Positions 1,089 to 17,608 of a DNA stretch of 41,608 nucleotides are shown here, one piece after another (within the stretch, counting starts at the first letter, position 1; each line of letters starts with the position of its first letter). The DNA comes from a virus. Location: positions 1-41,608 of IMG/VR virus record IMGVR_UViG_3300032080_000012, one strand, 5' to 3'. The notes under the pieces are model-generated. The model saw only the letters and a list, made by a program, of their open reading frames with translations. It made no database searches and was not told the DNA's origin. A program made the translations under genes and the position numbers.

Positions 1089-3646
1089 TAAATCCTCCGC
1101 TTGTCCCGGGCTGCCCGGACGGCTTCGACGACCAGGTCCTCGGCGTCACGCTTCGACTTCACGATCACACCGCTGTGGATGTTCACGATGATGGTGTCGC
1201 CGGCAATCGCCCTCATGGCCGCCGGGCCAGCAATCGGCTCCGGCTTACCGGTGCCGTTGGGGATCATGTTCATGCCCGGCTGCAGCATCCGGAAGCCGCC
1301 GTCATCCATGGCGATGTGGTCGTGGGCGTTGCCGCCGGCGAAGTTGTGCTGATTCCAGACCGCGCCGGTGTAACGGTGCCGCCTGCCGTGCAGGCGGTTG
1401 AACTGCTGGTAAGGCGTGATGGCCTCGGTGGTGCGGCTGCCGTACAGCCGGTCCCAGCCCTCGGCCAGCTTCCGGCTGGGCGAGAAGTCTCGAGCACGGT
1501 CCAGAGCGTGCAGCGACTGGTTGCCAGACAAGGTCCGGGCACCCGGCCGGAAACCGGAAATAACACGGGCGGCCGAGTCGATCGCCTTCGCAGCCCGCTC
1601 AATCCATGGCCCGGTGCGCCCGCCGGAAGGTACCGCCGGGATCACCTTCGATAGCGCCAGCGCCTTCGGCATCACGTAGGAGTCGGACACGTCGACCGGG
1701 AACCGCATGTACTTCGAGGTCTCGACCGGAGCGACCAGGCCGCCGCGGGCGTATCCCGGCAGCTTGCCGGTTGCGTGCAGCTCCTCGAGGAAGCCCGGCG
1801 CCTGCCGCCGGACCTTGGCGGTGGTCTCCTTGTTCACGACCCACTCGCCGCCGTGCACGATGCCCTTGGGCTCGTACTTGCCGCCGTCGCCGGTATAGCC
1901 ACCCGTGTGCAGCGAGCGCATCGCCGCGGTGCCCTCGTACCGCACAGCGTTGATGGTCTTGCCCTCGGCCAGGGCGCGCTGCGCGAGGTAGACCCGCTTC
2001 AGCTCGATGACGACCTGGTTGATGCCCTCGACGACGAGATCCGTCGCCTTCCGCGGCGGGATCTGCCCGTACGTCTTGATCAGGTCGCGGGTCTTCTTCT
2101 CATTGAAGCCGAGCTTGTCGGCCTCCTTGACGATCGCCGCGGTGCGGTTCTCGTGCTTCTTGCGCGCTGAGTCCACCGACTGGCCGGCGGCGATGTTCGC
2201 CAGGTACAGGTCATTGTTGCTGCCGAGCAGTCCCTGGAGCACGTCGCGGTTGGCGCGGCCGGCCGCCGAGTTGATGTCCAGCGTCGCCTTGTTCGTCTTC
2301 ACCGACGACGACAGGTCGTCCCAGCTGGCCTGGTACGCCTCGTTCGCGTCGGTGTTGCGGATCGCCGCGCCGTAGAGGTTGTCCATCGCGGCGCGCAGCG
2401 CGTCCGAGGTCCGCGCCGCGGTGGTGTTCTTGCCGCCGAGCGAGTCGAGGGTGCGCTGCAGGCCCTGCTGGGAGGTGGCGAGCGCCTCGTTGGCGGCCTT
2501 CAGGCCCTCCTGCTTCTTCTTCAGCTCCTCGGCGGACAGCGTCACCTTGATGGTGGTGCCGTTCAGCTCGTTGTAGCCGCCGGCCAGCTTGCGAGCGGAG
2601 AAGGTGCCGCTCTCCATCTCGCCGCCGGTCAACTTCAGCATGGCCTGAAGTCCGAAGTCGCCGCCGATGGCCTTGTTGATCTCGTACAGCTCGGTGAGGG
2701 CGTTGACCAGCTGGAACGTCGACTGGGTTACGCTGCCGACGACGTCGAACAGGGTGCGGAGCGCGTCCGCGCCTGCGGCGCTGTTGTCGGCCAGGCTCGA
2801 CATGCCCTCGCCGGCGCGCTTGCCGATCAGGGCGATGCCGTCGCTGATCGCCGCGATCGGCCCGACAGCATTGTCGACGAGCTTGCCCAGCGCCTCGCCC
2901 AGGTCGATGACGGCCGAGGCGACGCCGGCGGTCAGCGGCTGCACGAACGTCGACGACTTGGCGAGGATGCCCTCGATGTCGATCGCGCTGAGGGCCCGGC
3001 GGACCTCCTTGAGGCCGGCTAGGGCAGGGCCGACGAACGCGCCGCCGGCTTGGTTGAGGCGGTCGGAGAGCTGGTCGCCGAGGTCCTTGGCGGCGGACTG
3101 GACGCGCTCGTCCTTGGCCGCCAGCTTCAGGCCACCGACGACGCCGCCGATTCCCGCCCCGCCGATGATCCCACCGGCCACCGCGGCGCCCAGCAGTGGC
3201 GCGGCAGATGCGGCTGCGGCGGCCAGGCCGACCGACATCGGGCCGCCGATGGGGATCTTGGCGAGCAGGGGGCCGAGGCGCTGCGTCAGGCTGAGCGCGA
3301 GCTCGGGTGCTGCATCGCCGCCGACGTCGCCGAGGGTCTTGCGGAACCGGCCGATCTCCTTCAGTGCCTGCTCGGCGCGGACCTTGATCTCAACGGTGGA
3401 GGCGGTACGCGACAGCGCCTGCAGGCGCGCCTCGGTGGTGCCGATCGCGGCAAGGGCGGACTTCGGGTCCGCCTTGACGTCGATCGACTGCAAGTCCAGC
3501 CGCGCCAGCGCCCGATTGAGCTGGCCGCCGAGCTGCTTGCCGGCTTTGCCGCCGGCGTCCTGCCGAGCGAGCTGCGTCCTCAGGCTCGTGTCGAACTTGC
3601 TGACGTCCGGAGTTACCTCGATGTAGGCGCGGCGAAGGACGCTCAC
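1088..3646 (-). CDS. tail tape measure protein
   Basis: 852 aa and the largest gene of the tail module. Ala/Gly-rich helical regions, a hydrophobic GGPMSVGLAAAAASAAPLLGAAVAGGIIGGAGIGGVVGG segment, and the TMP-typical motif GGYTGDGGKYEPKGIVHGGEWVVNKE. GTG start. Flanked by chaperone genes and the Dit-like gene. Confidence 0.9.
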   Translation of the reverse strand: MSVLRRAYIEVTPDVSKFDTSLRTQLARQDAGGKAGKQLGGQLNRALARLDLQSIDVKADPKSALAAIGTTEARLQALSRTASTVEIKVRAEQALKEIGRFRKTLGDVGGDAAPELALSLTQRLGPLLAKIPIGGPMSVGLAAAAASAAPLLGAAVAGGIIGGAGIGGVVGGLKLAAKDERVQSAAKDLGDQLSDRLNQAGGAFVGPALAGLKEVRRALSAIDIEGILAKSSTFVQPLTAGVASAVIDLGEALGKLVDNAVGPIAAISDGIALIGKRAGEGMSSLADNSAAGADALRTLFDVVGSVTQSTFQLVNALTELYEINKAIGGDFGLQAMLKLTGGEMESGTFSARKLAGGYNELNGTTIKVTLSAEELKKKQEGLKAANEALATSQQGLQRTLDSLGGKNTTAARTSDALRAAMDNLYGAAIRNTDANEAYQASWDDLSSSVKTNKATLDINSAAGRANRDVLQGLLGSNNDLYLANIAAGQSVDSARKKHENRTAAIVKEADKLGFNEKKTRDLIKTYGQIPPRKATDLVVEGINQVVIELKRVYLAQRALAEGKTINAVRYEGTAAMRSLHTGGYTGDGGKYEPKGIVHGGEWVVNKETTAKVRRQAPGFLEELHATGKLPGYARGGLVAPVETSKYMRFPVDVSDSYVMPKALALSKVIPAVPSGGRTGPWIERAAKAIDSAARVISGFRPGARTLSGNQSLHALDRARDFSPSRKLAEGWDRLYGSRTTEAITPYQQFNRLHGRRHRYTGAVWNQHNFAGGNAHDHIAMDDGGFRMLQPGMNMIPNGTGKPEPIAGPAAMRAIAGDTIIVNIHSGVIVKSKRDAEDLVVEAVRAARDKRRI

Positions 3647-3975
3647 CGGTCACCACCGGGCGCGATGACGCCGTTCTTGATCGCCGCCGGCACAAGGTGC
3701 GGCCGTGGCGCCACACCCTCCCGGCCGTTCTCGACGATCCAGCCGTACCAGCCTTTGTCGCCCCAGCCGACAGCGAAGCCCTCGATACCAGTGTCCAGGT
3801 CGGTGATCTCCTCGACGGCGATATGCCGGGCCAGGTTGCCGGATCGCTTCGGGGCACCGCGCCGAGCGTCGCGCTGAACGGCCTTAGCGACCCTGCGTGC
3901 CTCGTCCTGCGGGCCGGCGCTGTTGGCGAGATCGCGCAGCGCCCGCGGGTCGCTGGGCCGGTTGTCGATGCGCAC
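3643..3975 (-). CDS. HK97 gp10-like neck/tail-completion family protein (unusual position)
   Basis: 110 aa. The pattern RRGAPKRSGNLARHIAVEE...GFAVGWGDKGWYGWIVENGREGVAPRPHLVPAA matches the gp10-family signature as I recall it (AP.xTG.L...I, Y..xVE.G, pPFL.PA). ATGA-type overlap with the TMP start. Confidence 0.6.
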   Translation of the reverse strand: MRIDNRPSDPRALRDLANSAGPQDEARRVAKAVQRDARRGAPKRSGNLARHIAVEEITDLDTGIEGFAVGWGDKGWYGWIVENGREGVAPRPHLVPAAIKNGVIAPGGDR

Positions 3976-5022: not shown

Positions 5023-5613
5023 TCAGACGGCCAGGGCGAGCGCGCCCGAGGTGAATCGCTTGTACGGCGTGGTGTAGCCGGTCGCGGGGATCTCGGCATT
5101 CATCTCGAACGACAGCCCGGCCTTGGTCTCGAAGCTGCCGCGCACGTACTCGACCTGAGCCACGTTGAAGACCTGCGGAAACACCAGGATCTCGTCGTTG
5201 CCGTTCGACTGGAACGCCAGCATCACGCGAACCTCGGCGTCGGCCAGCGGCGGCACGTACTCGACCGACTTCGTGGTCGTCGAGCCGGTGACGGTGGTCG
5301 AGCCGCCGTTCATGGCGAGCTTCCAGATCACGTCCGTGATCTCGTTCGCGACGAACGAGATCCGGCTCGTCTTGGAGGTGACGACCGTTCGAACCGCGTA
5401 CTTCGACTCCGCGACACGGATCTCAGCGGTCTCGGTCGCCTCGGTGTAGGTCATGCCCGCGTCGGTCGGGCCGGCGTCGAGCCAGTTCGTCCACGTCGGG
5501 TTGAAGATTGACCCGACTGCGGCGAACGACGGGATGGCGGTCAGCAGCGGCGCGTACCGGATCCGGCCAGGGCCGGTCTGGATCGCTGCTGGAGTGATCG
5601 GGGGAACAGCCAC
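5023..5613 (-). CDS. major tail (tube) protein
   Basis: 196 aa, beta-rich and Thr/Val-rich (..GMTYTEATETAEIRVAESKYAVRTVVTSKTSRISFVANEITDVIWKLA..). In the canonical slot upstream of the chaperones and TMP. Confidence 0.7.
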   Translation of the reverse strand: MAVPPITPAAIQTGPGRIRYAPLLTAIPSFAAVGSIFNPTWTNWLDAGPTDAGMTYTEATETAEIRVAESKYAVRTVVTSKTSRISFVANEITDVIWKLAMNGGSTTVTGSTTTKSVEYVPPLADAEVRVMLAFQSNGNDEILVFPQVFNVAQVEYVRGSFETKAGLSFEMNAEIPATGYTTPYKRFTSGALALAV

Positions 5614-6327: not shown

Positions 6328-6606
6328 ATGCTGTATTACGCGCCTGCCGGGACGTCGATCGAGGACCTGAGTACGTGGACGCCACTGGGTGTGGCCGAGC
6401 CGTTCGAACTGCCGTACGTGCCCACCGACCCGCTCGACGAGGTGGACCTGGCGCCGCTCCCGTTCGCCGGACGCACGTTCAGCGCATCCGTCACATTCCC
6501 GCTGGCCGACTTCAACCCGTACGGCTACTGGGTGCTCTTCCGCCGCCGCCACCCGCGCGTAGCCGCTATGCACCGCGCCTACCGCCGGAAGACCCGCAGG
6601 CGCTAG
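6328..6606 (+). CDS. hypothetical protein, reverse-oriented inside the structural operon; basic C-terminal tail
   Basis: 92-aa ORF, MLYYAPAGTSIEDLSTWTPLGVAEPFELPYVPTDPLDEVDLAPLPFAGRTFSASVTFPLADFNPYGYWVLFRRRHPRVAAMHRAYRRKTRRR. Third codon positions are about 85-90% G/C by hand count, and composition is protein-like. It fills an otherwise 309-nt gap between two minus-strand genes, and the only minus ORF there is Arg-rich shadow. Its stop shares CTAG with the convergent gene. Confidence 0.6.
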   Translation: MLYYAPAGTSIEDLSTWTPLGVAEPFELPYVPTDPLDEVDLAPLPFAGRTFSASVTFPLADFNPYGYWVLFRRRHPRVAAMHRAYRRKTRRR

Positions 6607-6939: not shown

Positions 6940-9144
6940 TCAGGGCCTGGGTATGGTGCCGGCGTATGGGCGGACGACGACACCGGAATACGGGCGAGGG
7001 ATCCGCTTACGCACCCGTGGCGAGTGGGCCGCGCCGGTCGCGGTGGCCACGCCTGCGAGCGCCGAGCCAGGCCCACCGATCAGCACGCTCGGATCGACGG
7101 CTGCACCGGTGGACTCCGCGGCGCCGGCGAAGACCTGAACCGCGGCGGTCGCACCGTTCGCCTCGGCCGTAGCGGTCGCCTCGCCGGCAGGGGCCGCCGT
7201 GCCAGCGAACGTCGAGACCGTGGGGTCGAGTGCCTGCCCGGTCGCCGTGCCGACGCCCGCGTCTACAGTCATCGCGGTGGTCGGCGTCTGGGCCGTGCCC
7301 GATCCGGTCGCTTCGCCGGCCGGGGCGGACGCCGACGAGCTGGTCGTGACGGTCGGGCCGGACGTGGTGCCGACCGCGGTGGCGTCCGCTGCGTTGGTGC
7401 CGAGCGCAGCCGCGGGGTCCTGGGCTACGCCGGCGGCGGCCGCGGCGGTGGCGTTCGCGCTGACGGCGGAAGCGGTTGAAACAGTGGCGTCGAAGGCGGC
7501 GGCCGCGCCCTCGACCGGGTTGTCCGCGATCAGGTCCAGGCTGATCGACGCCCCGGAGTCCCACTCCGCCGTGCCGACGCCCGTCGGGGTGCCGGCGTTG
7601 ACGGTTGAGCCGACCGACGGCGTCTGGGCCGCGCCGGTCGCGGCCGCGGTGGCAGTGTTCGCTCCGGCTGCGGCGGCCGGTGTCTGCGCGCTGCCGGTCG
7701 CGGTGGCCTCGGTGCTGTTGGCGGCGATTGCGGCGGTAGGGCTTTGGGCCGCGCCGGTCGCTGGTGCCTCACCGGCGGACGGGGAGCCGCCCGCGGCGGT
7801 GGAGAAGACGACATCGACGAAGTAGCAGGAACCGCCGCCGTTGGAGTTCGGGTAGCCGAGCGTCGCGTCGATCCGGTACGTGCCCTGGTCGATGACGAAG
7901 CCGCCGACCGTGTCGCCGTCGGCGTCGGCGGTGATGTCGCCGTTGACCAGGTCGGAGGTGAAGAACGACGACGTCGCGACGTAACGGCCGTCGCCGGAGA
8001 AGATGACCGCCCGGTACGGGACACCTGCAGTGACCGAGACCGGTGTGATTGGGACTGTGTTCCACGCGCTAGGCGTCGGCGCGCCGCCCATCGTGGCGCT
8101 GCCGAGCAGCGTGCCCGTGCCCGGGTCGGACCCGTCAACCGAGTAGAACGCCGCGGTGTAGGTGCCAGAGACACTGCTGCTCGCGTAGAACGCGATGTCG
8201 GAGACCTGGCCGGCCTGCGCGAAGCGGACGGTCGTGGCGGTAGCGATACCAGGCGCGCCGTCGGAGAAGCTGCCCGCCGGAGTCTGGCTGGTGAACAGCG
8301 ACTGCGTGCCGCTGCCGGACGTGCTCACCGTGGGGGCGTGGGCAACGCCGGCCGCCGTCGCCTCGCCCGCGGCTGGCGCGCCCGAGGACGAGGCTGTCGC
8401 GCCGAACGCCGTGCCCGCGGCTGTGCTCTCCGTGGCGGCGACGGCGACCGCGGTGGTCGGGGTCTGCGCTGCGCCCGTGCCGGCAGCCTCGCCTGCGGCG
8501 GGGCTCGCACCGGCCGAACCGAGCACCTCGACGGCGGCGACGGTGAACGCCGTACCGGGCAGGCTGGTCGTGCCGTACGCGGTGGTGCCGGTCGCGCCCT
8601 GGTCGCCCCAGTGCGCGACGACCGCGGTCGCGCCGGCATTCGTCTGGGCGACCAGCTGCGTCTGCCCGGCCGGAGTCCAGCCGATACCGCTCGTGCCGGA
8701 AGCCGACCAGTCGGCGGCCCAGCCGACGACCGCGGAGTTCGCCTGGGTGCGGGTGACGCTGACCGTCTCGGTCCCGTCGACACCCGCCTTGTTCGTCCGC
8801 GCGAACCCGGTGCAGCCTCCGTACGCGAACGCGTAGATGCCGCGCATCGCCACGCCGGTACCGCCGGCCCGGGTCGCGGTGACCGCACTGGAACCGGACG
8901 AGCCGGCCGTCGCCGACCAGGCGTGCAGCCAGCACGAGTTGCTGGGCGTGACCGCCGAACCCAGCGCGGAGAACGTCAGGCCCGTCGCGGTCGGGGTGTT
9001 CAGGGTGAAGCTCTGGTCCTCGGTCATCGCCACGACCAGGATCCGGTCGCCCGAGTTCCAGGTCAGCGTGCCGGTGACCTCGCTGACCGCGGCGTTGTCC
9101 GTGTAGTCCGAACCAGCACTTGAGGTCAGCGTCGGAGCCGCCAC
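6940..9144 (-). CDS. large DUF4082-like domain protein flanked by about 20-aa Ala/Thr/Gly repeats (putative surface adhesin/fibre)
   Basis: 734 aa. The central segment SLFTSQTPAGSFSDGAPGIATATTVRFAQAGQVSDIAFYASSSVSGTYTAAFYSVDG...GGGSCYFVDVVFST parallels the DUF4082 consensus, including the terminal Y-[WF]-VDVVF. On both sides are repeats such as PAGEATATGAAQTPT / ATGSAQTPAAA / GVAQDPAAA. Confidence 0.7.
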   Translation of the reverse strand: MAAPTLTSSAGSDYTDNAAVSEVTGTLTWNSGDRILVVAMTEDQSFTLNTPTATGLTFSALGSAVTPSNSCWLHAWSATAGSSGSSAVTATRAGGTGVAMRGIYAFAYGGCTGFARTNKAGVDGTETVSVTRTQANSAVVGWAADWSASGTSGIGWTPAGQTQLVAQTNAGATAVVAHWGDQGATGTTAYGTTSLPGTAFTVAAVEVLGSAGASPAAGEAAGTGAAQTPTTAVAVAATESTAAGTAFGATASSSGAPAAGEATAAGVAHAPTVSTSGSGTQSLFTSQTPAGSFSDGAPGIATATTVRFAQAGQVSDIAFYASSSVSGTYTAAFYSVDGSDPGTGTLLGSATMGGAPTPSAWNTVPITPVSVTAGVPYRAVIFSGDGRYVATSSFFTSDLVNGDITADADGDTVGGFVIDQGTYRIDATLGYPNSNGGGSCYFVDVVFSTAAGGSPSAGEAPATGAAQSPTAAIAANSTEATATGSAQTPAAAAGANTATAAATGAAQTPSVGSTVNAGTPTGVGTAEWDSGASISLDLIADNPVEGAAAAFDATVSTASAVSANATAAAAAGVAQDPAAALGTNAADATAVGTTSGPTVTTSSSASAPAGEATGSGTAQTPTTAMTVDAGVGTATGQALDPTVSTFAGTAAPAGEATATAEANGATAAVQVFAGAAESTGAAVDPSVLIGGPGSALAGVATATGAAHSPRVRKRIPRPYSGVVVRPYAGTIPRP

Positions 9145-9153
9145 GCAGGCCTC

Positions 9154-10035
9154 CTACGGCGAGGGAATCGACTCGCCGTCGACGAAGGCGTTGTCGGTCC
9201 AGGTGATGCCGGTCGTCTGCTCGACGTCGATCGGCCCGAACGCGTGCTCGCGGGTCCACCGACACCCGACCACCGTGACGTTGGTGATGTCGCCTGCGCC
9301 GGCGTCGCCGCGGAACTGCATCGCGTACCCGCCGCGGTCGAGGCCGCAGTACCGCACGTCGATGTCCTGCGCGGCCCCAGCTTCAGTGCCGACCCGGAAC
9401 GCCTGACTCGCGCCCGGCCCGGTGCCGGCGGAGATCCACGAGTGGTAGAACGTGGCCCGACCGATGTCAGTGCACTGCACGCCGTCGGAATGCATCTCGG
9501 CCGTGGCCCCGAACGCGACGAAGTTGGAGCCGCTCGCCACGCAGTAGTACCAGCCCGACCAGGCGTCCTCCGCGCCGCGCATGTCCGAGTCGATGACCCA
9601 GCAGTGGCCGCCGAGCAGGCACTTGTCGGTGGTTCCGAGCCCGCCGCCGTCGAAGTTGCACCGGTTGAACACGACCAGCGGCTGCATGACGTTCGCCGTC
9701 GCGCCGGCCCCGTTCACCTCGACACACCAGTTGCCGATGCCCTCGAACGAGCACTCGTCGAACAGGTACGTCACGCCCGACCCCGGCCCAGGGGTGATGG
9801 TGTCGGTGAAGCGGATGTGCCGCCACACGCTGACGTCCAGCTCGACGCTGGCGGCGGTGACCGGGTGCGTGATGACGAACGTCTCGGTTGCCGTCGGGGA
9901 GCCGAGAGTGGACCGGCTGGTCAGAGTCGTGCCGGTCGGGACGCCCACCTGGGTGCCGCGGGTGAACGCGGCTGTCGGCGCCGCAACGTCCGGCGACAGG
10001 TTGAAGTGGGCCGTGTTCTTGACCGCGACGGGCAT
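9154..10035 (-). CDS. right-handed beta-helix (pectate-lyase-fold)-like protein, putative glycan depolymerase/spike
   Basis: ATG at 10035 (residue 105 of track ORF), sharing its A with the upstream TGA (TGATG). Repeated rung-like motifs: FDECSFEG, FNRCNFDGG, VIDSDMRG, GSNFVAFG, FYHSWISAG, VRYCGLDRGG, VVGCRWT. Fold inferred from the pattern only. Confidence 0.55.
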   Translation of the reverse strand: MPVAVKNTAHFNLSPDVAAPTAAFTRGTQVGVPTGTTLTSRSTLGSPTATETFVITHPVTAASVELDVSVWRHIRFTDTITPGPGSGVTYLFDECSFEGIGNWCVEVNGAGATANVMQPLVVFNRCNFDGGGLGTTDKCLLGGHCWVIDSDMRGAEDAWSGWYYCVASGSNFVAFGATAEMHSDGVQCTDIGRATFYHSWISAGTGPGASQAFRVGTEAGAAQDIDVRYCGLDRGGYAMQFRGDAGAGDITNVTVVGCRWTREHAFGPIDVEQTTGITWTDNAFVDGESIPSP

Positions 10036-10541
10036 CAGACCGTGATGCGCAGGATCCCGTTGGCGGCCCACACGATCGTGAACGTTCCCGCCGTGACCGA
10101 CTGCGCCCCGCCGAAGCTGTTGAAGCAGACGCCCTGGTCGGCGATGCCGCCGGTGCCGGCCGTGATCGTGTCGTCGTAGACGAGGCAGCCGTAGGCGTTC
10201 GACAGGGTGACGTTGCCGCCGCCGGCCGTGTCGGCGGCGTCGAACATGAACACGCCGGTCGCCGGGTTGGTCAGCGTCTTCGATGCTAGGGTGCGGCCGG
10301 TCGCCGTCCAGTTGGTGGCGTCGGTGACCTCGTTGCCGGTCGTCCACGTGCCCGTGTTGTAGCCGGTCGAGGTGAGCGCGGCATCCTTGTCGGGGGTGAC
10401 CGTGTTGTTGAACAGGGCCACCTTGACGGTGTCCGCACCCAGGCCCGCGTACCCGGCCGGGAGAACCGCGGCGGTCTGACCCTGGCCGAAGATGGCGAGG
10501 GGCCAGGCCCGGAAGATTGCGCTGCTACTGCCGAAGGCCAT
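10035..10541 (-). CDS. beta-rich virion-surface/fibre-like protein (hypothetical)
   Basis: 168 aa, Thr/Gly/Asn-rich (..VKVALFNNTVTPDKDAALTSTGYNTGTWTTGNEVTDATNWTATGRTLASKTL..GTFTIVWAANGILRITV). Translationally coupled on both sides (TAATG upstream, TGATG downstream). Confidence 0.5.
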   Translation of the reverse strand: MAFGSSSAIFRAWPLAIFGQGQTAAVLPAGYAGLGADTVKVALFNNTVTPDKDAALTSTGYNTGTWTTGNEVTDATNWTATGRTLASKTLTNPATGVFMFDAADTAGGGNVTLSNAYGCLVYDDTITAGTGGIADQGVCFNSFGGAQSVTAGTFTIVWAANGILRITV

Positions 10542-10690
10542 TACGACCCGTCCTCTCCGGTGGTCTGGCCGTCATCGGCCTGGTCGTTACAGTCGCGCTC
10601 ATCGACGCGCTCGTCGTCCGGCTCGGGAGCCGGAGTGTTGTCCTCGGTGCGGACCATCGGGTTGAAGGCGGCCCCGCCTGCGTCGCTCAT
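10541..10690 (-). CDS. small acidic protein (49 aa)
   Basis: MSDAGGAAFNPMVRTEDNTPAPEPDDERVDERDCNDQADDGQTTGEDGS. The ATG overlaps the upstream stop (ATGA) and its TAA overlaps the next ATG (TAATG), bridging the two neighbours exactly. Confidence 0.5.
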   Translation of the reverse strand: MSDAGGAAFNPMVRTEDNTPAPEPDDERVDERDCNDQADDGQTTGEDGS

Positions 10691-10998
10691 CCGAGCCTCC
10701 CGTGCGCCGTCGGCGCGTACACCGTCACGTCGTTGCCGTCGTCGCGGGTCGTGACCACAGCCATGACCGGGCGGCCGTCGCCGTCGTACTGGACGTCCTC
10801 GCTGCCGATGTAGTCCTCGCGTTCGACCGCCTCGACCTTGGCGCGGGTGCCGGCCGGGACCATCGGGGCAGAAAGGCCGGCCAGACCGGCGCAGTTGTGG
10901 AACCGGGAGTGCGGCTGCGCCTCGCGGGTGACGTCGATTGCCGGGCAGTTCGGGCATTCCCAGCGGCGCTCAGGCACGGTCAGCAGGGCAGCGCGCAT
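10687..10998 (-). CDS. Zn-ribbon-like small structural-module protein
   Basis: 103 aa, from an internal ATG sharing A with the upstream TGA. MRAALLTVPERRWECPNCPAIDVTREAQPHSRFHNCAGL.. (CxxC...HxC). Confidence 0.55.
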   Translation of the reverse strand: MRAALLTVPERRWECPNCPAIDVTREAQPHSRFHNCAGLAGLSAPMVPAGTRAKVEAVEREDYIGSEDVQYDGDGRPVMAVVTTRDDGNDVTVYAPTAHGRLG

Positions 10999-11369
10999 CA
11001 GGCCTCCAGCGTCGACGGCACGGCCGTCCACGACCAGTCCGGCTCGGGGAACGAGTACACCGGCGTCGAACCGGTCGAGTACTTCTTGCGCGCCGCCTCG
11101 AGGATGTCCGCGCGGCGTGCACGGTTGAAGGTGATGGCGTGGTCGTCGATTGTCTCCGATGCGTACCCGGACGGGTTGCCGTAGGCCATCTCGGCCAGCT
11201 CGAGCGCCCACGTCCACAGGTCGTCCGGGACCGGCTCGGTCCATTCGGACAGCCCGGTGGCCGACCCGAGCCACCCCGATGCGACCCGGCGCGCGTTCGT
11301 CGCCGACTCGGCGTCGAGCTCGCGCTGCATGTAGCTGGCGAGCTCGGGCAGGGTGAACAGGTCGGCCAC
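10998..11369 (-). CDS. head-tail connector (gp6-like) protein
   Basis: 123 aa, MADLFTLPELASYMQRELDAESATNARRVASGWL... Size, N-terminal pattern and its slot two genes after the major capsid gene suggest a gp6/gp15-type adaptor. Confidence 0.45.
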   Translation of the reverse strand: MADLFTLPELASYMQRELDAESATNARRVASGWLGSATGLSEWTEPVPDDLWTWALELAEMAYGNPSGYASETIDDHAITFNRARRADILEAARKKYSTGSTPVYSFPEPDWSWTAVPSTLEA

Positions 11370-11375
11370 GGCGGG

Positions 11376-11684
11376 TCAGTCCTTGTTGCCGGCAGCCGGG
11401 CGGGCCCCCGGCTTGGCGGCGGAAGCCTTGGCCGGCGGTCCCGGCTTCGGAGCCACCGGCATGCCGGCCTGGTCGAACTGGACCGGCTGGCCGACCGGGA
11501 CCGCGGCGTCGGCATCGTCCGACCCCTGCTCGGCGACCATGCCCTTGCGGACGAGCTTCTCGACGTCGTCCGGGTGGGTGTCCTTCGGCAGCACGCCGCC
11601 GGTGTAGAACTCCCGCACCACGTCCGAACCGAAGTCGTCCTTCACGCGCGCCGTCAGGTACGGCGCAGTCACGACGAAGCCCAT
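11376..11684 (-). CDS. hypothetical head-module protein
   Basis: 102-aa ORF with a Pro/Ala/Lys-rich C-terminus. The ATG shares its A with the major capsid gene TGA. Confidence 0.55.
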   Translation of the reverse strand: MGFVVTAPYLTARVKDDFGSDVVREFYTGGVLPKDTHPDDVEKLVRKGMVAEQGSDDADAAVPVGQPVQFDQAGMPVAPKPGPPAKASAAKPGARPAAGNKD

Positions 11685-12610
11685 CAGGACACCACCCCGG
11701 TGATCTCCTCGCCAGCGCCGGCTTCCTGCACGATCGGCACCGTCTTGCGGCGACCCTGCAGGTCCCAGGCGTCCAGCTCTTCCTGACGGATCGACTTGAT
11801 CTGAACGGCCAGGTCGGCCACACCGTAGCCAGGCGCGCCGTCGACCTCGTCAGCCATGCCGCCGAGCATGTTCGAGTCGACCACCAGCGCGGTAGTCGTC
11901 AGCGCCGGCGTCTTCAGCACGGTCAGCCCGGCGACGGTCTCGATCATCCCGGTGTAGATCGGGTTGTCCGTGGCCTCGCGGCGCCGCAGCGTCGCGATGG
12001 TGTCGTTGAGCATCAGGTAGGTGTAGGCCTTCGGCGACACGACCAGGGTGTCCGGGCGGTAGCCCTGGTTGCGGTCCTCGATGCGCTGCACGGCGAGCAG
12101 GATGTCGTCGAGCGGCTTGCGGGTCGCGAGCGTCGCCGAGTCCCAGATGCCCGTCGTGGCAGTGTCCGCGAGGGCCGCCTGAATCGCTGACATGGTGACC
12201 GCGTCGACCTGGCGGATGATCGAGTTGACGACCTTCTGCATGCTGCGCGAAATGGCCTGTCCGCCGTAGACGGAGCGGGCGATCTCCTCGTCGGTGAGGC
12301 GGGTCTTCTGACCCCACTTGACGATCGCGGCGACCGCGGCCGTGCCGGTCGGCAGCGACGCGAACGGGTACTCGGACCCGGGCGCCACGGCCTCGACGGT
12401 GCGGTCCGAGACGAACGGCTCGGACTGCTCGTAGGTGACGGCGCCGCCGCTCGAGCGGAACCGCTGGGTGAGGATCTGGTCGGACACGAACCGCAGGTTG
12501 CGGAACGTGCGCAGGATCCGGCCGATGGCGGTCGGGTTCTGCAGGAAGCGGCTGATCGACAGCGTGTCGCCCGAAAGGGTGGGCGCAGCTGCCGGGTAGG
12601 TAGTGGGCAC
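11684..12610 (-). CDS. major capsid protein (HK97-fold type)
   Basis: 308 aa. Sits after the decoration and protease-scaffold genes. Sequence character (..AVTYEQSEPFVSDRTVEAVAPGSEYPFASL...KWGQKTRLTDEEIARSV..) is typical of actinophage major capsid proteins. Confidence 0.8.
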   Translation of the reverse strand: MPTTYPAAAPTLSGDTLSISRFLQNPTAIGRILRTFRNLRFVSDQILTQRFRSSGGAVTYEQSEPFVSDRTVEAVAPGSEYPFASLPTGTAAVAAIVKWGQKTRLTDEEIARSVYGGQAISRSMQKVVNSIIRQVDAVTMSAIQAALADTATTGIWDSATLATRKPLDDILLAVQRIEDRNQGYRPDTLVVSPKAYTYLMLNDTIATLRRREATDNPIYTGMIETVAGLTVLKTPALTTTALVVDSNMLGGMADEVDGAPGYGVADLAVQIKSIRQEELDAWDLQGRRKTVPIVQEAGAGEEITGVVS

Positions 12611-12628: not shown

Positions 12629-13015
12629 TTACCGGCGGCCCTGGACGCGCAGCAGCAGCGGCGATCCAGCGGCGGTGGTGGTGGCGGTGCCGATGAGCGT
12701 GCCGGCAGCGGCAGCGGTCGCGATCGTGGCGGTCTTGACCTGGCCGTTGGCATCGGTGACGACGCCCGCGCCGGTAGCCAGCGCGCCGGAAGCTTCGAGT
12801 TCGTGGATGACGCCGTCGATCGGCCACACGGTGACCTTCGCGCCGGAGCCCGCGTCGAACGCGGCCACACCCACGACGTCGGCGGCGTCGGCGCCGGCCA
12901 TCGCGACGGTGCCGTTGCCGGACTCGACGAGCACACGCCGGCCGGTCACGGCCGCCGAGGTGGTCGCGGTCCACGGCTTGGCGCCGCCGGTGAAGACGGG
13001 CTGGTAGTCGGCCAT
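12629..13015 (-). CDS. head decoration / capsid cement protein (DUF2190-like)
   Basis: 128 aa, MADYQPVFTGGAKPWTATTSAAVTGRRVLVESGNGTVAMAGADAADVVGVAAFDAGSGAKVTVWP... resembles DUF2190 proteins found directly upstream of major capsid genes. Confidence 0.65.
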   Translation of the reverse strand: MADYQPVFTGGAKPWTATTSAAVTGRRVLVESGNGTVAMAGADAADVVGVAAFDAGSGAKVTVWPIDGVIHELEASGALATGAGVVTDANGQVKTATIATAAAAGTLIGTATTTAAGSPLLLRVQGRR

Positions 13016-13018
13016 GGC

Positions 13019-14809
13019 TCAGGCCCCCTTCGTCATGGAGCCGGGCGGGAACAGGCCCGCGTACTCGCGGTCGAATTCCTTGTCGTCCAGGTCGGCGTAT
13101 CCCGACGCGGCGATCGCCAGCGCCGAGTTCGGGGTCAGGCCCTCGATGAGCGCCTTCGTGCCCTCGGGGTCGGCGAGCCACAGCTTCGCGAAGTGCGGCT
13201 TCTGTGCCGGGGTGAACTTGCCCTGCTCGACCGCCGACGCGATGACCTTGTCGGCCTCGTCCCGCTTGGCCTGGTCGACGTGCGCGGCGAGACGCTTGAT
13301 GGTGTTCTGCGTCTCCTCCCACACCGACGAGGCGATCAGGACGGTTCCGGGGGTGGTGACCGAAGAGGCCGACACCAGCTGCGGCTCGGGCTCCGGCGTG
13401 GGCGCGGGAACGGCCGCCCGGGTGGGGTTGGGAGCCGGCTTCGGCTCGGGCTGGGACGCGACGAGTCCGGCCGCCGCGATGGCCGCGGTCACCTCGTCGT
13501 CGGAGGCGCCGTCCGGAAGGCCGGCCAGAACCTCTCGATACTTGGCCAGGTACATCCCGGCTCCTTCCGTTGGTGACGGTGGTTCGACCCCCGCGGGGGT
13601 TGCTTCGGTGCTGGCGGCGATCCACTCGGCGCCCGATTCGGCGGCCGCGGCGGATACGAGTTGGCGCAGGTCGGACAGCGACTTCAGCACCGGAATCCCG
13701 GGCGGAGTCGAGCCGAGCAGCGCGAGGCGAGTCAGGGCGAGGGCGTACTCGCGGCCCTTGAAGGTGACGCCGGCAACGCCCTCGATGGAGCGGTGCGGCC
13801 AGCGCGCGGGCGCGGCGGCGGCGACCCACTCGTCGAGCTCGACCAGGTCGCCGAGCAGCACGGGGCCGTCGTCGTCCTCGTCGTAGCGGACGTTGGACAG
13901 CCACCCGAACGCCGGGTCGCCGTCGAAGCGGCGGTCCTGGTGGCCGAAGCCCAACGGGATCTGCTGGCTGCCGGACGCGGCGTAGAAGTCGGCGGCGTCG
14001 CGCAGCATCGCGGCGGTGAATTCGCGAGGGCCGGACGACAGGTGCCAGGTGCCGGGTCGGGCGAGTTCGACGCCGAGGAGCTCGGCCATGTCCCCTCCGT
14101 GGGTGCGCTCGAGGGATGCGGTCACCGGTTCGGCGCCCATGAGGTTGGTGATGGCCTTGGTGAACTTGCCGGCCGCCGAAGCGGAGTCGATGTAGAACGG
14201 CTCGCGGCGTTCGTCGGCACCGTCGGGGGCCGGGTCGATCGCCAGCGACCATGAGCCGCCGGGGCCCAGGTCGGCGCCGCCGGGGGAGTAGTCATCGCCT
14301 TCTTCGCGGGTGAGCTTCCAGTTCACGTCGCCCCATGCGGAGCCACGGACGACGCCGGATGCGATATCCGCCTCAGGGCCGGGCCACTGATCTGCCGGGC
14401 GGTCCTGCTTGTGGGCCTGGCGCAGCTCGCCGCGGAAATCCGAGACGTTCTGCCTGCCGTCGGCCGCCGCCTTCGACACGGCGTCGCGCAGCTCGCGCGC
14501 GCCGGCGGCGTCCAGCTCGACGGTGCGGCCCTTGTTCTCCGCCCGCCACGCCTTGGTGTCGTCCGGGTTGACCACGCCGAAGCGGAGCCTGGAGCCGCCG
14601 GGGCCGTCGATGCGGGCCATCACGACGGATTGGTCGCCCGCGCTGTCGTGGATCCGGGCGCTGCCGCCGAAGGTCTCGCCGGGGCCGAGCCGGATGCGGC
14701 CGGCGAGCTTCAGGGGGTCGCCGGCCGGACCGGGAATGCCGTCGGACCACTGGCCGTCAGGGTCGCGCTTCTGACCCGGACTCCAGGCGGCCATGATCCG
14801 CTCGGTCAT
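13019..14809 (-). CDS. capsid maturation protease / scaffolding fusion protein with an extra N-terminal domain
   Basis: 596 aa. The middle (..ARPGTWHLSSGPREFTAAMLRDAADFYAASGSQQIPLGFGHQDRR..GWLSNVRYDEDDDGPVLLGDL..) resembles Mu gpI-type proteases. Then comes a Pro/Ala linker and a helical C-terminus (..KFTPAQKPHFAKLWLADPEGTKALIEGL..) typical of scaffolds. About 230 N-terminal residues are unassigned. ATGA overlap with the portal stop. Confidence 0.6.
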   Translation of the reverse strand: MTERIMAAWSPGQKRDPDGQWSDGIPGPAGDPLKLAGRIRLGPGETFGGSARIHDSAGDQSVVMARIDGPGGSRLRFGVVNPDDTKAWRAENKGRTVELDAAGARELRDAVSKAAADGRQNVSDFRGELRQAHKQDRPADQWPGPEADIASGVVRGSAWGDVNWKLTREEGDDYSPGGADLGPGGSWSLAIDPAPDGADERREPFYIDSASAAGKFTKAITNLMGAEPVTASLERTHGGDMAELLGVELARPGTWHLSSGPREFTAAMLRDAADFYAASGSQQIPLGFGHQDRRFDGDPAFGWLSNVRYDEDDDGPVLLGDLVELDEWVAAAAPARWPHRSIEGVAGVTFKGREYALALTRLALLGSTPPGIPVLKSLSDLRQLVSAAAAESGAEWIAASTEATPAGVEPPSPTEGAGMYLAKYREVLAGLPDGASDDEVTAAIAAAGLVASQPEPKPAPNPTRAAVPAPTPEPEPQLVSASSVTTPGTVLIASSVWEETQNTIKRLAAHVDQAKRDEADKVIASAVEQGKFTPAQKPHFAKLWLADPEGTKALIEGLTPNSALAIAASGYADLDDKEFDREYAGLFPPGSMTKGA

Positions 14810-16074
14810 GACGCCGGGGCGGGGTCGATTCCGGGCAGTGTCGGCTGCGTCGCTCGCGACGGCGCGGTGGTCGCCTTGTCGATGGCCGGCAGGCCGTACT
14901 GCTGGCGCACGGTCTCCTTCAGCACGTCGTCGGCGGTGATCAGGCCCGCGTCGACGAGCGCCTTCAGCGCCTGCGCGGTCGCGGCCTGCCTGCTGCCGAT
15001 CTCGTCGAAGACGACCCGCGGGGCGGGTTCAGTCGGGCCGAAGTTGATGTCGACCAGGTCCTCGACGATGTGCTGCGTCGCCGTGTCGGCGATCTGCTGG
15101 GCGAGGGTCTGCAGCGACAGGACGAAGAAGTCGGCGAACGTGGTGCCGAGCGCCCACGAGCCCGTCTGCGTGCCCAGGTTCAGGAAGTGCGCAAGGACGG
15201 CGCGGCCGATCTGCTCGTCGTGGTAGCGGATCGACGGCAGCGCCTGCGGCAGGGTGCCCTCGACGCCGCGCAGCACCATGTCGGCGGTGTTTGCCACTGC
15301 AGAACCCGCGGTCTCGCCGGCGCGCCACGCCCTGGCCATCGCCAGGCCGGCCGACAGGTCTTCCTCGCCCTCGGCGGCCTTGTACAGCGGGACGCCCATG
15401 CCGTTGCGCTCGATCGTCTGCGCATCGACCCTGAGCAGCCGGTCCTTGATCAGCCAGTGCTTGTACGCAGGGCGCAGCAGGGAGAACCCCAGCCAGTTGC
15501 CGCCCTCCTTCTCATGCACGTACGCCACGAGGCGGTCGACCGGGATGGGCCGCTGCCGCGTCGAGGTCATCGTCGAGTACTGGGTGATGGAGACCAGACC
15601 GCCGTCGGGGGCGACCTTGACCTCTTCGATCGTTCGCGGCATCCGGGGCGCCAGCTTGCGCAGCCTCGCCCGGTCGCCGCCCTCGTCGGGCCGGTAGACC
15701 TGCTCGAAGTACATGTGTCCGAACGGCAGCATCAGCAGCGCGTCACGTAGGTGCTCTGGCCACGAGAACCGGTCCCGGGTGCGCAGCGTCGCCTTCGGCT
15801 CCTTGCCGACCACGGGCAGGCCGAGGTTGTCGGCGACGAACTGCGTCACCCGAGCCTTCGCGCCGGCCGGATCGATGCGCCACGGCGTACGCCGCACTGG
15901 CAGCGTCACCGCGCGCAGCACGCTGGCGACCTGCGCGTCCTGCCGGCGCATCTGGTCGTAGACGGTCACCGACAGCGGCCATTGCAGCTCTGGCGTCGTC
16001 TCGGTCTCGTCGTAGTTCCACCAGTTGCGCGCCTCGGTGGCATAGCCGATCTCGTTCTTCGGTGCGACGACCAC
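14806..16074 (-). CDS. portal protein
   Basis: 422 aa, directly downstream of the large terminase. Size and sequence character are typical of portals. Confidence 0.8.
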   Translation of the reverse strand: MVVAPKNEIGYATEARNWWNYDETETTPELQWPLSVTVYDQMRRQDAQVASVLRAVTLPVRRTPWRIDPAGAKARVTQFVADNLGLPVVGKEPKATLRTRDRFSWPEHLRDALLMLPFGHMYFEQVYRPDEGGDRARLRKLAPRMPRTIEEVKVAPDGGLVSITQYSTMTSTRQRPIPVDRLVAYVHEKEGGNWLGFSLLRPAYKHWLIKDRLLRVDAQTIERNGMGVPLYKAAEGEEDLSAGLAMARAWRAGETAGSAVANTADMVLRGVEGTLPQALPSIRYHDEQIGRAVLAHFLNLGTQTGSWALGTTFADFFVLSLQTLAQQIADTATQHIVEDLVDINFGPTEPAPRVVFDEIGSRQAATAQALKALVDAGLITADDVLKETVRQQYGLPAIDKATTAPSRATQPTLPGIDPAPAS

Positions 16075-16090: not shown

Positions 16091-17608
16091 TCAGAAACCG
16101 GCAGTCGCCAGTTCGCTCGTCTCGGACCGACCGGAGCCGGCTGCGATCACCTGCGGTGCCGGCGGCGGGGCTTGCGGCGGCGGCGACACGGACAGGCCCC
16201 AGTGGGCGCCGGTCGCACCTACCAGGGGGCTGATGTCGGTCTCGGACTTACGTCGCGACCACGCCCACAGGCCGTCGCCGATCTCGCGCCGGCCGGCCGA
16301 AGCCACCGCGCGGTTCAGTGCCGGGTCGTCGAGGTGGCGCAGGCCCTTGTCGGTGACGACCGCAGCGAACGCCTCGCAGGCTTGGCCGAGGTCGCGGGTG
16401 GACATCTGCCGCGGCTCGATGCCGTGCGCGAGCAGGTCGGGCAACAGCGCGCCGGCCGGGCCGCCCGGATCGAGGATCCAGTCGATCGGCTTGTGGCGTT
16501 GCAGCTGCACGGCGCGCGGTGCGGCCCAGTCGGAGCCGGCGCCGTGCGCGACGACCTCGATATGCGGCAGGCCGTCAGGGCGGTACATGGCGGCGACGAT
16601 CGCCACCGACCTCAGCCCGGGCGACGCGTCGATCATGAACACCGGACGACCGTTCGGCTTGGACTTCTCATCCTTGCAGTCGGACCACGCGGCCAGCGGC
16701 AGACCGCCGACGCCGGCCGGCTCGGTGAACCAGCCGAGGCGCTCGCGGCCGAACTCCTCGGGCGGTAGCGCCCGACGCTCGGCGCGGATGTAGGTGACGG
16801 CGATCCGGCGGCCGAGGGACGGGTTCGCCAGCCGCCAGAGGTCCTCGTCGTCGAGGACGCAGCCGTCGGTGTCGACTGTGTGCGGGCATTCCGGGCCCAG
16901 CTCGCAGCCCGGGTGGTCCCAGGATCCGGGCGCGCAGTGCTCGATGTAGACCAGCGACGGGTCGCCGCCCTTGCGGCCGCGGTCCCGCAGGATCCGCAGG
17001 TGGTCTGAGCCGAGCACGCCGGCGCTCGATGCGTAGTTGATCTGCGGGTCGCCGGTCATTGAGCGCGCGGCGAGGGTCGGGAGCAGTGCGCCCATGGCCT
17101 CGGACGACAGGAACAGCGCCTCGTCCATCACGATCCGCTTGCCGCCGATGCCGCGGCCACCACCCTTGGACCGGGCCAGGAAGTCCAGCCGGGCGCCGTT
17201 GTGCAACTGCACCGACTCTTCGCCGTTGGCGTAGGAGACCTTCTTGACCCGCTTCGACAGCTCCGGCGTCGCGGCGATCATCCGGTCGAAGTCGTTGAAC
17301 GCGTCCCGCGCGGTGCGGAACAGGTGCGCCGTCCACACGATCCGGTCCGGCGGCATCAGGAACAGGTCGAAGAGCACGACCGGCACCAGCTCGCCGCCGG
17401 TCTTGCCGTTCTGCCGCGGCTCCAGCCGGCACGTTTCCAGTGCCGCCCACCGGCCGCCCGGCCCGTACGACAGCATCGCGTCGACCGCGACCTGCTGCTC
17501 GGCGTCGAGCTCCCGGCCGGCGATCGCGGCCAGGTCGATCGCCTCGTCGGCGTACGAACCTTGTCGCGGCGGGATCCACAGATGCGCCGGCGCGACCGGC
17601 TCAGCCAC
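16091..17608 (-). CDS. terL: terminase large subunit
   Basis: 505 aa, with a Walker-A-like PRQNGKTGG near the N-terminus. Overlaps the small subunit gene and is followed by the portal gene. Confidence 0.9.
   Translation of the reverse strand: MAEPVAPAHLWIPPRQGSYADEAIDLAAIAGRELDAEQQVAVDAMLSYGPGGRWAALETCRLEPRQNGKTGGELVPVVLFDLFLMPPDRIVWTAHLFRTARDAFNDFDRMIAATPELSKRVKKVSYANGEESVQLHNGARLDFLARSKGGGRGIGGKRIVMDEALFLSSEAMGALLPTLAARSMTGDPQINYASSAGVLGSDHLRILRDRGRKGGDPSLVYIEHCAPGSWDHPGCELGPECPHTVDTDGCVLDDEDLWRLANPSLGRRIAVTYIRAERRALPPEEFGRERLGWFTEPAGVGGLPLAAWSDCKDEKSKPNGRPVFMIDASPGLRSVAIVAAMYRPDGLPHIEVVAHGAGSDWAAPRAVQLQRHKPIDWILDPGGPAGALLPDLLAHGIEPRQMSTRDLGQACEAFAAVVTDKGLRHLDDPALNRAVASAGRREIGDGLWAWSRRKSETDISPLVGATGAHWGLSVSPPPQAPPPAPQVIAAGSGRSETSELATAGF

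Follow-up and report, generated by a model that had tools for sequence, protein, structure and literature searches.

We propose that a block of five genes at positions 6940-10998 of the viral record IMGVR_UViG_3300032080_000012 (IMG/VR; the whole 41,608-nucleotide stretch, positions 1 to 41,608 of that record, is referred to here as ‘the window’) is a late-expressed accessory cassette of virion-associated adhesion proteins with glycan-binding or glycan-degrading cargo, a reading to which we would give a probability of roughly 0.6. The phage that carries it appears to be a temperate siphovirus of Streptomyces-like actinomycetes, and the block separates its genes for the head-tail adaptor and the head-closure protein. 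At the heart of the cassette is a pair of proteins, one zinc-ribbon-like (ZnR) and one a divergent member of PHROG 644 (p168). A role in fibres and adsorption is suggested by the presence of PHROG 644 genes in minor-tail clusters, by carbohydrate-active cargo in related loci, and by the putative adsorption module of the satellite phage MiniFlayer; we infer that the products are incorporated into the virion.

A five-gene block interrupts the connector genes

The block and its two borders are arranged as follows.

10998-11369, minus strand: head-tail adaptor, gp6-like, 123 amino acids (aa), phrog_442; upstream border of the cassette
10687-10998, minus strand: ZnR, a 103-aa C2HC zinc-ribbon-like protein, the constant partner of p168
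10541-10690, minus strand: 49-aa acidic peptide, a variable or optional small open reading frame (ORF) between ZnR and p168
10035-10541, minus strand: p168, a small, predicted beta-sandwich protein and divergent member of PHROG 644; the cassette's conserved core
9154-10035, minus strand: p293, predicted short right-handed parallel beta-helix (AlphaFold2 and Foldseek); variable cargo
6940-9144, minus strand: p734, a ‘rope’ protein of 734 aa
6603-6929, minus strand: head closure/stopper protein Hc1, 108 aa, phrog_501; downstream border of the cassette

The sizes (103, 49, 168, 293 and 734 aa), coordinates and tight coupling of the five minus-strand ORFs are as described in an earlier note on this DNA. 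The ATG of ZnR overlaps the TGA of the adaptor gene, the 49-aa peptide is joined to ZnR by an ATGA overlap, and the starts of p168 and p293 overlap the preceding stop codons as TAATG and TGATG, respectively; p734 begins with GTG, 9 nucleotides past the p293 stop and preceded by GGAGG, and Hc1 starts 10 nucleotides past the p734 stop, preceded by GGGAGG. No promoter- or terminator-like sites were found inside the block, and on reading the sequences by eye no N-terminal hydrophobic leader stands out in p168, p293 or p734.

Both borders can be assigned with reference to known families: Hc1 matches phrog_501 (head closure; E 6e-14) and is 62-78% identical to its counterparts in four related loci (L017, L104, L106 and L157; loci are given L numbers throughout), and the adaptor matches phrog_442 weakly (E 8e-5) and shares 59% identity with the gene that a Dactylosporangium prophage (L093) has in the adaptor position. 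The same note had these two genes separated by the block, and the interruption is real, as in Kiko and Vasanti, Gordonia phages with the same capsid type, the connector genes that follow the major capsid protein (MCP) gene are contiguous and lack an insert (those of Vasanti being annotated adaptor and stopper). Searched by megablast against cultured phages, the block gave no nucleotide match, nor did p293 or p734 by tblastn; an NCBIfam search with nine proteins returned no hits, and PDB sequence searches with p168, p293, p734, the 506-aa protein described below and the A1 and A2 profiles gave nothing useful.

The ZnR-p168 pair is the conserved core

Through p168 we fetched 80 IMG/VR loci and nine loci from genomes, 89 in total, and a ZnR homologue (45-75% identical) lies directly upstream of p168 in all of them (80/80 and 9/9). 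Thirteen of the 89 contained no marker that was recognised and were left unclassified; in 68 of the remaining 76 the pair adjoins head and/or tail genes, 41 of the 89 having head genes upstream together with neck or tail genes downstream, 22 only head genes upstream and 5 only tail genes downstream. Recognisable tail genes upstream of the pair were seen in none of the 89. In one large group (L018-type) the pair sits between the MCP region and a phrog_783 adaptor, after MCP and two further head-region genes; in other groups it lies between a phrog_442 adaptor and either Hc1 or a DUF6093 connector. Homologues of the cassette were found in Streptomyces, Dactylosporangium and Actinoplanes genomes; these genomes include Dactylosporangium sp. 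CA-052675 (L093), Actinoplanes italicus (L004), and Streptomyces sp. NRRL S-455, S. roseolus JCM 4411 and S. hydrogenans JCM 4771 (L091, L095 and L096). Eight loci have the pair upstream of the terminase. In L090, L092, L095 and L096, from Streptomyces genomes, and in L048-L050 and L057 the whole ZnR-p168-cargo-rope cassette is placed just upstream of the terminase genes, at the start of the late operon and not in the neck slot.

The pair is kept in L093, which has the head of the window’s phage (MCP 77% identical) and a different tail, and equally in L017, which has its tail and a different head, so that the cassette occupies the head/tail mosaic junction and is inherited separately from both modules. 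More broadly, the pair occurs with at least four unrelated MCP types (the HK97-like type of the window, SU10_MCP, Phage_capsid_4 and a 600-aa phrog_777 type) and is retained alongside two kinds of tail that are unrelated to each other (506-aa type and TTP16/p901 type). The full four-gene set was found elsewhere only in L002, in the same order and the same slot and at 59-87% identity, and the TerL, portal and SU10-type MCP of L002 are unrelated to those of the window.

These observations bear on two alternatives. The first would make the block a one-off of trivial and recent origin, an ordinary fibre cluster moved from behind the tape-measure protein (TMP) gene in this genome and no other, an outcome that the earlier note had itself named as fatal to its idea. 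Distant p168 homologues do lie after the TMP gene in cultured phages; yet dozens of loci whose heads and tails are unrelated share this neck-region position, and L002 retains the arrangement despite its unrelated head, and we consider such a rearrangement very improbable indeed. The second is that the products are capsid-mounted head fibres or decoration proteins, presenting adhesins over the whole head. The genes do lie in the head half of the operon, the PHROG 644 gene of MiniFlayer directly follows its MCP gene, and the L018-type pair is likewise preceded by MCP and head-region genes. Against this, capsid decoration proteins normally co-evolve with the capsid, whereas the pair travels with several unrelated MCP types, and the window already has a separate cement/scaffold-like gene (12629-13015); we regard head fibres as quite improbable.

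The assignment of p168 to PHROG 644 is an indirect one. Residues 29-168 match phrog_644 weakly (E 9.3e-4), and BLASTP provides a bridge to two members of the family, MiniFlayer gp6 (7e-15; 39% identity) and Ronaldo gp61 (1e-12; ~37-39% identity), which themselves match phrog_644 at 2e-44 and 3e-31, respectively. There are 1970 p168 homologues (the best 120 all being at least 74% identical), at least 7984 proteins in the MiniFlayer gp6 branch and, by a full HMMER scan, 485 clusters at 50% identity in the p168 family. The AlphaFold2 model of p168 is all-beta with a predicted local distance difference test score (pLDDT) of 67, which suggests a beta-sandwich at moderate confidence, and Foldseek returned no significant structural neighbour for it. 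A Pfam search with 47 members of the p168 family found no family, even at E <= 1. We also considered whether p168 might be a Gp80-like bead on the rope, as in fibre I of phage GP4, and rejected this (hhalign probability 0.3% for its profile against Gp80-like N-terminal domains).

For ZnR, the zinc-ribbon call of the earlier note stands as a prediction of metal binding: the four Cys/His ligands are arranged in two knuckles (C15-x2-C18 and H34-x-C36) and, along with W13, are invariant in 36 distinct homologues. The protein matches no Pfam, PHROG or NCBIfam family. The 49-aa peptide is more loosely associated with the pair; its residues 2-22 are 81% identical to the N-terminus of an 89-aa ORF at the same position in L008, and other relatives have ORFs of 64-110 aa here, often coiled-coil, or none.

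Rope proteins share a terminal peptide

Four regions can be distinguished in p734.

8500-9144, minus strand: N-terminal globular domain, aa 1-215, variable
7816-8226, minus strand: DUF4082 domain (Pfam PF13313), aa 307-443
7030-7782, minus strand: ‘rope’ region of Ala/Thr/Gly-rich peptide repeats, aa 455-705
6943-7029, minus strand: conserved C-terminal basic RP-repeat tail (RVRKRIPRPYSGVVVRPYAGTIPRP)

Of the earlier description of p734 as a ‘DUF4082-like repeat protein’, the DUF4082 call stands, as the match scores 54.5 bits (E 1.6e-14; Pfam cut-off 28.4) and covers positions 22-143 of the 143-position profile; DUF4082 is present as a single domain, and it is the Ala/Thr/Gly-rich peptides that repeat. 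Among the fetched loci DUF4082 was found elsewhere only in L002, and a literature search for DUF4082 in phages found nothing. The N-terminal 215 residues are likewise common only to L002 (84%) and, weakly, L059 (31%).

What p734 generally shares with other loci is limited to the repeat region and the last ~46 residues. The former (~250 aa; 29% Ala and 15% Thr, with recurring AGEA..TG.AQTPT-like motifs) is 44% identical over 274 aa to a separate 268-aa repeat protein of L017. The last ~46-48 residues are 62-65% identical in the rope proteins of L031, L032 and L036, and the same tail motif ends the otherwise different rope proteins of L002, L017, L027, L030-L032 and L106; we suggest that the RP-repeat tail is a candidate anchoring peptide. 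A ‘rope734’ cluster treated as one family was rejected, as it partly reflects low-complexity similarity, and only the subgroup with this C-terminal tail is regarded as homologous. The rope proteins encoded downstream of p168 in L016, L020, L021, L023, L026, L029, L041, L047 and L070 end instead in SGREP-type tandem repeats, such that rope proteins have two alternative short C-terminal repeat motifs.

p293 is a predicted beta-helix protein

We identified 75 metagenomic and prophage homologues of p293, and an AlphaFold2 model built on a 47-sequence alignment is all-beta, with ~25 short strands, a pLDDT of 93 and a predicted template-modelling score (pTM) of 0.91. Its leading Foldseek matches in the PDB and BFVD are nearly all right-handed beta-helix carbohydrate-active enzymes or tailspikes, including AlgE4 epimerase, RbmB lyase, polygalacturonases, Pel9A, phage tailspikes and a lactococcal neck passage structure (NPS), with a few pentapeptide-repeat beta-helix proteins besides; in the PDB, AlgE4 (2pyg) scored 4e-4 and Pel9A gave a template-modelling (TM) score of 0.43, the best BFVD match scored 3.8e-6 with a TM score of 0.57, and probabilities reached 1.00. 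The earlier guess of a beta-helix, made from repeated rungs in the sequence, holds on this evidence, and the model supports a right-handed beta-helix as the fold class. Neither p293 nor its 47-sequence profile has a sequence match in Pfam, PHROG, NCBIfam or the PDB.

On the strength of the modelled fold, p293 is a candidate glycan lyase, hydrolase or binder. Eight residues (C95, C126, H182, D184, Q187, R259, W279 and N282) are invariant in the 47 homologues, and three of these fall within a family consensus of DPHSDGxQ (EMHSDGVQ in the window), which we take to resemble the DPH(D/E) motif of AlgG/AlgE epimerases; conservation of H182, D184 and Q187 hints at catalysis. Longer homologues add one or two N-terminal domains of ~100 aa that match Pfam Gp80 weakly (below the cut-off), or an Mtd_N domain, both of which are fibre-associated. 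A 397-aa reading of the p293 ORF was discarded, its Arg-rich N-terminal extension being an out-of-frame artefact.

Cargo beside the pair is exchangeable

Beta-helix and DUF4082 proteins do not generally recur beside the pair. Its neighbours include a glycoside hydrolase with an Apiosidase-like domain (3e-17), a protein whose GDSL-like match falls slightly short of the Pfam cut-off (2e-7), beta-helix proteins, ropes between 233 and ~1500 aa long, the Gp77 fibre-tail adaptor family (~1e-28, in variants such as L048 and L090) and several families without any match. In the L020-type group, a neighbour of 112 aa matches BppU_N weakly (E 0.0018, below the cut-off), and a search of the six-frame translation of the window with a Gp77 hidden Markov model (HMM) made from 14 family sequences found none. 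A 133-aa protein of L106 and a 137-aa protein of L090 were tried as Gp80-like proteins, an idea that found no support (hhalign probability 3.7% and 32%, respectively).

Enzyme-like cargo of this kind raises the prospect that the products are not virion components at all; they could be soluble late proteins freed at lysis (a depolymerase, or a modifier of biofilm or capsule), or the block could be a moron-like accessory locus that serves the lysogen. A hypervariable, dispensable slot in a temperate, integrase-encoding phage would suit either. We think this improbable, however, given that the block shares start/stop overlaps and a strand with essential connector genes and has no promoter of its own that we could discern, that homologues are annotated beside minor tail proteins, and that assembled fibres are typically marked by rope-like repeat proteins with conserved terminal peptides and by neighbours of the Mtd_N, Gp77 and BppU_N-like kinds.

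The slot is variable and the tail tip is constant

Among close tail relatives, the interval between the adaptor and Hc1 (or the DUF6093 connector) behaves like a hot spot for the recombination of accessory structural genes. The slot holds the ZnR-p168 pair in L102 (the same contig as L017); proteins of 443 and 197 aa in L157 and L004, respectively, with a beta-helix protein also present in L004 and the pair in neither; and in L106 proteins of 133 and 260 aa and a rope protein of 431 aa that ends in the same tail as p734, again without the pair. In L145 it is only ~0.5 kb long, the same tail tip being kept. This variability indicates that the cassette is accessory. The 197-aa protein of L004 was considered as an analogue of p168 and is unrelated to it.

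The tail tip itself spans the ends of the window, which share an exact 127-bp overlap (positions 1-127 are identical to 41482-41608), marking the window as a circular assembly of a 41,481-bp genome.

1-1088 (N-terminal part) and 41049-41481 (C-terminal part), minus strand: 506-aa post-TMP protein, running across the circular junction and rebuilt after removal of the 127-bp overlap
40663-41052, minus strand: Zn129, a 129-aa Cys/His-rich zinc-ribbon-like tail-tip protein, with a GTGA overlap with the 506-aa gene
40109-40663, minus strand: p184, probable tail-tip receptor-binding protein (phrog_7565)

As the earlier note observed, the tip is small: the TMP gene is followed by ORFs of 506, 129, 184 and 92 aa and then the endolysin, with no ORF above 506 aa. 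Its ‘Dit-like’ label for the 506-aa protein fits in position, directly after the TMP (the gene start overlaps the TMP stop, and homologues are always post-TMP), and fails in sequence, there being no Dit family match nor any match in Pfam, PHROG, NCBIfam or PDB sequences. ‘Dit506-like’ proteins that seemed to lie beside p168 in L013, L033, L040, L057 and L077 proved to be an artefact of single-linkage clustering; direct BLAST homologues are found only after the TMP. Zn129 has no family match, and the C-terminal 130 residues of p184 match the minor tail protein family phrog_7565 (E 3e-7).

In an independent sample of 80 IMG/VR loci anchored on the 506-aa protein (L099-L178), the 506-aa/Zn129/p184 trio is present in 77, with p184 in one to four tandem copies. 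A minimal tip is consequently standard for the lineage and not special to this phage, and L145 combines it with a near-empty slot; on these grounds the cassette looks like an accessory and not like compensation for a missing tail receptor-binding protein. None of the 506-aa protein, Zn129 and p184 matches a Dit or Tal family, which suggests an uncharacterised type of siphovirus tail tip with a Cys/His-rich protein of its own.

Genome and late operon

The order of the late operon was derived from profiles of G+C at third codon positions (GC3) and from family searches, in a window of ~70% G+C. Other features are as follows.

16091-17608, minus strand: TerL, late operon
14806-16074, minus strand: portal, late operon
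13019-14809, minus strand: Mu-like protease/prophage I protein, capsid maturation, 596 aa
12629-13015, minus strand: cement/scaffold-like gene
11684-12610, minus strand: MCP
11376-11684, minus strand: connector, 102 aa
5889-6293, minus strand: tail terminator; a 91-aa ORF is next in the operon
5023-5613, minus strand: major tail protein; chaperones are next in the operon
3643-3975, minus strand: Neck1/tail-completion gene, HK97-gp10-like (phrog_5 at 5e-10, PF04883)
1088-3646, minus strand: TMP
38929-39807, minus strand: endolysin, Amidase_2, after the 92-aa ORF
34425-35252: tyrosine integrase

The integrase and RecET-like genes indicate that the phage is temperate. Its MCP is 44-45% identical to those of the Gordonia phages Kiko, Powerball and Vasanti (44% for Vasanti), and the closest head module is that of the Dactylosporangium prophage L093 (portal 72%, MCP 77% identical).

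A few further features of the operon deserve mention. The protease has an N-terminal extension of ~240 aa without a family match, its protease matches beginning at residue 242. The Neck1 gene sits between the tail chaperones and the TMP gene, apart from the other connector genes, and does so in L017, L027, L102, L104, L106 and L157 also. In the C-terminal third of the TMP (residues ~700-790), His/Asp motifs (SLHALDRARD ... NAHDHIAMD) recognised by eye are like those of LAS/M15-type zinc peptidases; a cell-wall hydrolase domain may lie within the TMP, for which no Pfam match was obtained. Finally, a 92-aa ORF on the plus strand (6328-6606) stands between the head-closure and tail-terminator genes of this minus-strand operon; it has a coding-like composition (GC3 0.88, with G+C higher at first than at second codon positions), and no homologue in any fetched locus or family match. 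The two flanking genes are adjacent in L017, and the ORF may be a moron-like insertion.

Comparison with known systems

The earlier note recognised no described module in this arrangement, which goes too far, precedents being found in MiniFlayer (PMC10690885) and in lactococcal NPSs (PMC6669499). MiniFlayer is a Streptomyces satellite in which gp6-gp9 form a putative adsorption module between the MCP and adaptor genes (PMC10690885). The likeness lies in gp6, which follows the MCP gene and is the PHROG 644 homologue of p168, and in the company of one very large protein and another, small one labelled ‘tail fiber’; MiniFlayer differs in being a 17-kb satellite with a podovirus-like stub, which adsorbs to the neck of its helper, and in having no ZnR partner, beta-helix or DUF4082, and the roles of gp6-8 are putative. 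Lengths of 13-18 kb are frequent among the longest contigs that carry the best 120 homologues of MiniFlayer gp6 (at least 74% identical), which suggests that MiniFlayer-like satellites are abundant in environmental metagenomes.

[quoted passage not shown] The HHpred templates of beta-helix NPSs (2pyg and 4mxn) are also the top PDB Foldseek neighbours of p293 (PMC6669499). An NPS is, however, a single polypeptide (an N-terminal BppU-like collar domain, a trimeric coiled coil and a C-terminal module) as opposed to the five genes seen here, and none of the five window proteins has a BppU_N match or a long coiled coil. Moreover, the NPS lacks the ZnR/PHROG 644 core and has no sequence homology to the cassette, and its neck location has been shown, as against a possible one here.

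PHROG 644 occurs in 378 cultured-phage records, with a different placement in those actinophages that offer the nearest parallels. In the Gordonia phage Ronaldo, gp61 belongs to a post-TMP cluster (gp57-62), beside the minor tail protein gp62; in the Mycobacterium phage Corndog, the family is represented by gp63, two genes after the central fibre gp61 (the paper on the Corndog baseplate structure does not mention gp63); and in Vasanti, a cluster that follows lysin B (gp24-28) reads minor tail protein, small ORF, PHROG 644, Gp77 (gp27) and minor tail protein, the last of these (gp28) being an Ala-rich repeat protein. Vasanti and Ronaldo resemble the window in having a PHROG 644 protein flanked by large repeat-rich or globular minor tail proteins; these minor-tail clusters, that of Corndog included, differ in lying after the TMP gene or the lysis cassette and in lacking ZnR.

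The podophage GP4 reportedly has multi-gene neck fibres hung on a dedicated adaptor ring, with small-domain beads on a flexible element and distal carbohydrate-binding modules. In the myophage A-1(L), multi-gene neck fibres are encoded far from the neck genes (PMC10966104). Gp77 in the cassette variants of relatives and weak Gp80 matches in long p293 homologues are points of likeness to both phages; the window proteins themselves have no Gp77 (by HMM) or Pfam Gp80 match. Genes of the Gp77 family are found ~21-22 kb into the genomes of siphoviral mycobacteriophages, where several carry a minor tail protein annotation; given this context, Gp77 alone is no indicator of a neck location.

Where might the products be mounted?

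If the products are virion-associated, attachment at the neck is a realistic possibility, at somewhat less than an even chance. In its favour are the position that the genes most often occupy, the rope gene lying right beside Hc1, the retention of the pair with unrelated tails, and analogy to the NPS and GP4. Attachment to the distal tail is nearly as likely, if tentative in itself, and is favoured by the cultured-phage context of homologues and by the terminase-proximal variants.

The tail-mounted alternative envisages side fibres on the baseplate or distal tail, whose genes stand apart from those of the tail tip and whose products dock on the 506-aa/Zn129 complex or the tail tube; as a rival to our reading it is doubtful, and deserves to be taken seriously. 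PHROG 644 and Gp77 genes belong to post-TMP minor-tail clusters in Ronaldo, Corndog and mycobacteriophages (~21-29 kb into the genome), Vasanti, a phage with a related capsid, has a displaced fibre cluster after its lysis genes, the position of the cassette shifts between the neck slot and upstream of the terminase, and the best, weak structural neighbour of p168 is a tail-tip chain of phage Bxb1. Opposed to this, the p168 subfamily that has ZnR includes no locus with recognisable tail genes upstream, in both the window and L106 the head-closure gene directly adjoins a rope gene whose product has the conserved C-terminal tail, and the pair is kept with two tail types that are unrelated, such that a tail-specific docking partner is not obvious.

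Several observations weigh against the proposal of a virion-associated adhesion cassette. The pair lies upstream of the terminase in 8 of the 89 loci, and distant p168 homologues are encoded behind the TMP gene or behind the lysis genes; taken together, these make gene position a weak guide to the site of attachment. p168 is better conserved (55-90% identity) than the capsid and neck proteins that accompany it, which would be unusual for a receptor-binding protein and a neck anchor alike, and its best Foldseek match, the Bxb1 chain, is a lead only (E 0.098, from a pLDDT-67 model). As for the cargo, the Foldseek E-values of p293 are weak (4e-4 against the PDB, with TM scores of 0.2-0.57), p293 matches no CAZy-type sequence family, and DUF4082 is a domain of no known function.

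A speculative model and its implications

Synthesising the above, we suggest that the cassette proteins would be made together with the head and neck proteins and would assemble as flexible fibres on the virion, attached through the C-terminal tail of the rope and/or the ZnR-p168 pair. Their variable domains could then bind or trim glycans of the host cell wall or extracellular matrix, leading to reversible primary adsorption or penetration of a capsule, with committed binding being left to the conserved 506-aa/Zn129/p184 tip.

More tentatively still, we speculate that this is an undescribed modular neck-fibre system in temperate siphoviruses of Streptomyces-group actinomycetes, in which the ZnR/PHROG 644 pair and RP- or SGREP-anchored ropes hang exchangeable cargo (beta-helix, apiosidase-like, SGNH-like or DUF4082) at the head-tail junction; this would be an actinophage counterpart of the lactococcal collar-whisker, made from unrelated parts and passed on as one cassette between phages whose heads and tails are unrelated. 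Already known are accessory fibres with genes outside the tail-tip cluster, neck-mounted carbohydrate-binding fibres and the PHROG 644 module of MiniFlayer. What is new is the core pair of ZnR and PHROG 644, the rope proteins that end in conserved peptide repeats, and the adaptor-stopper interval as a hypervariable cargo slot common to many uncultured Streptomyces-group phages.

For annotation, PHROG 644, with its 8,000 or more metagenomic members, would gain a testable functional context, and genes lying between adaptor and stopper should not by default be named head or connector proteins. Should the products turn out to be tail-mounted or soluble, the locus would be one more example of displaced fibre genes. 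If they are virion fibres, the slot would be a natural plug-in site, whose core and swappable cargo might be used for phage retargeting or for mining depolymerases that act on the cell-wall glycans of actinomycetes. For a large group of Streptomyces-type temperate phages, most of them uncultured, the locus would then be a second determinant of host range, and one that is easily overlooked because it lies outside the tail genes.

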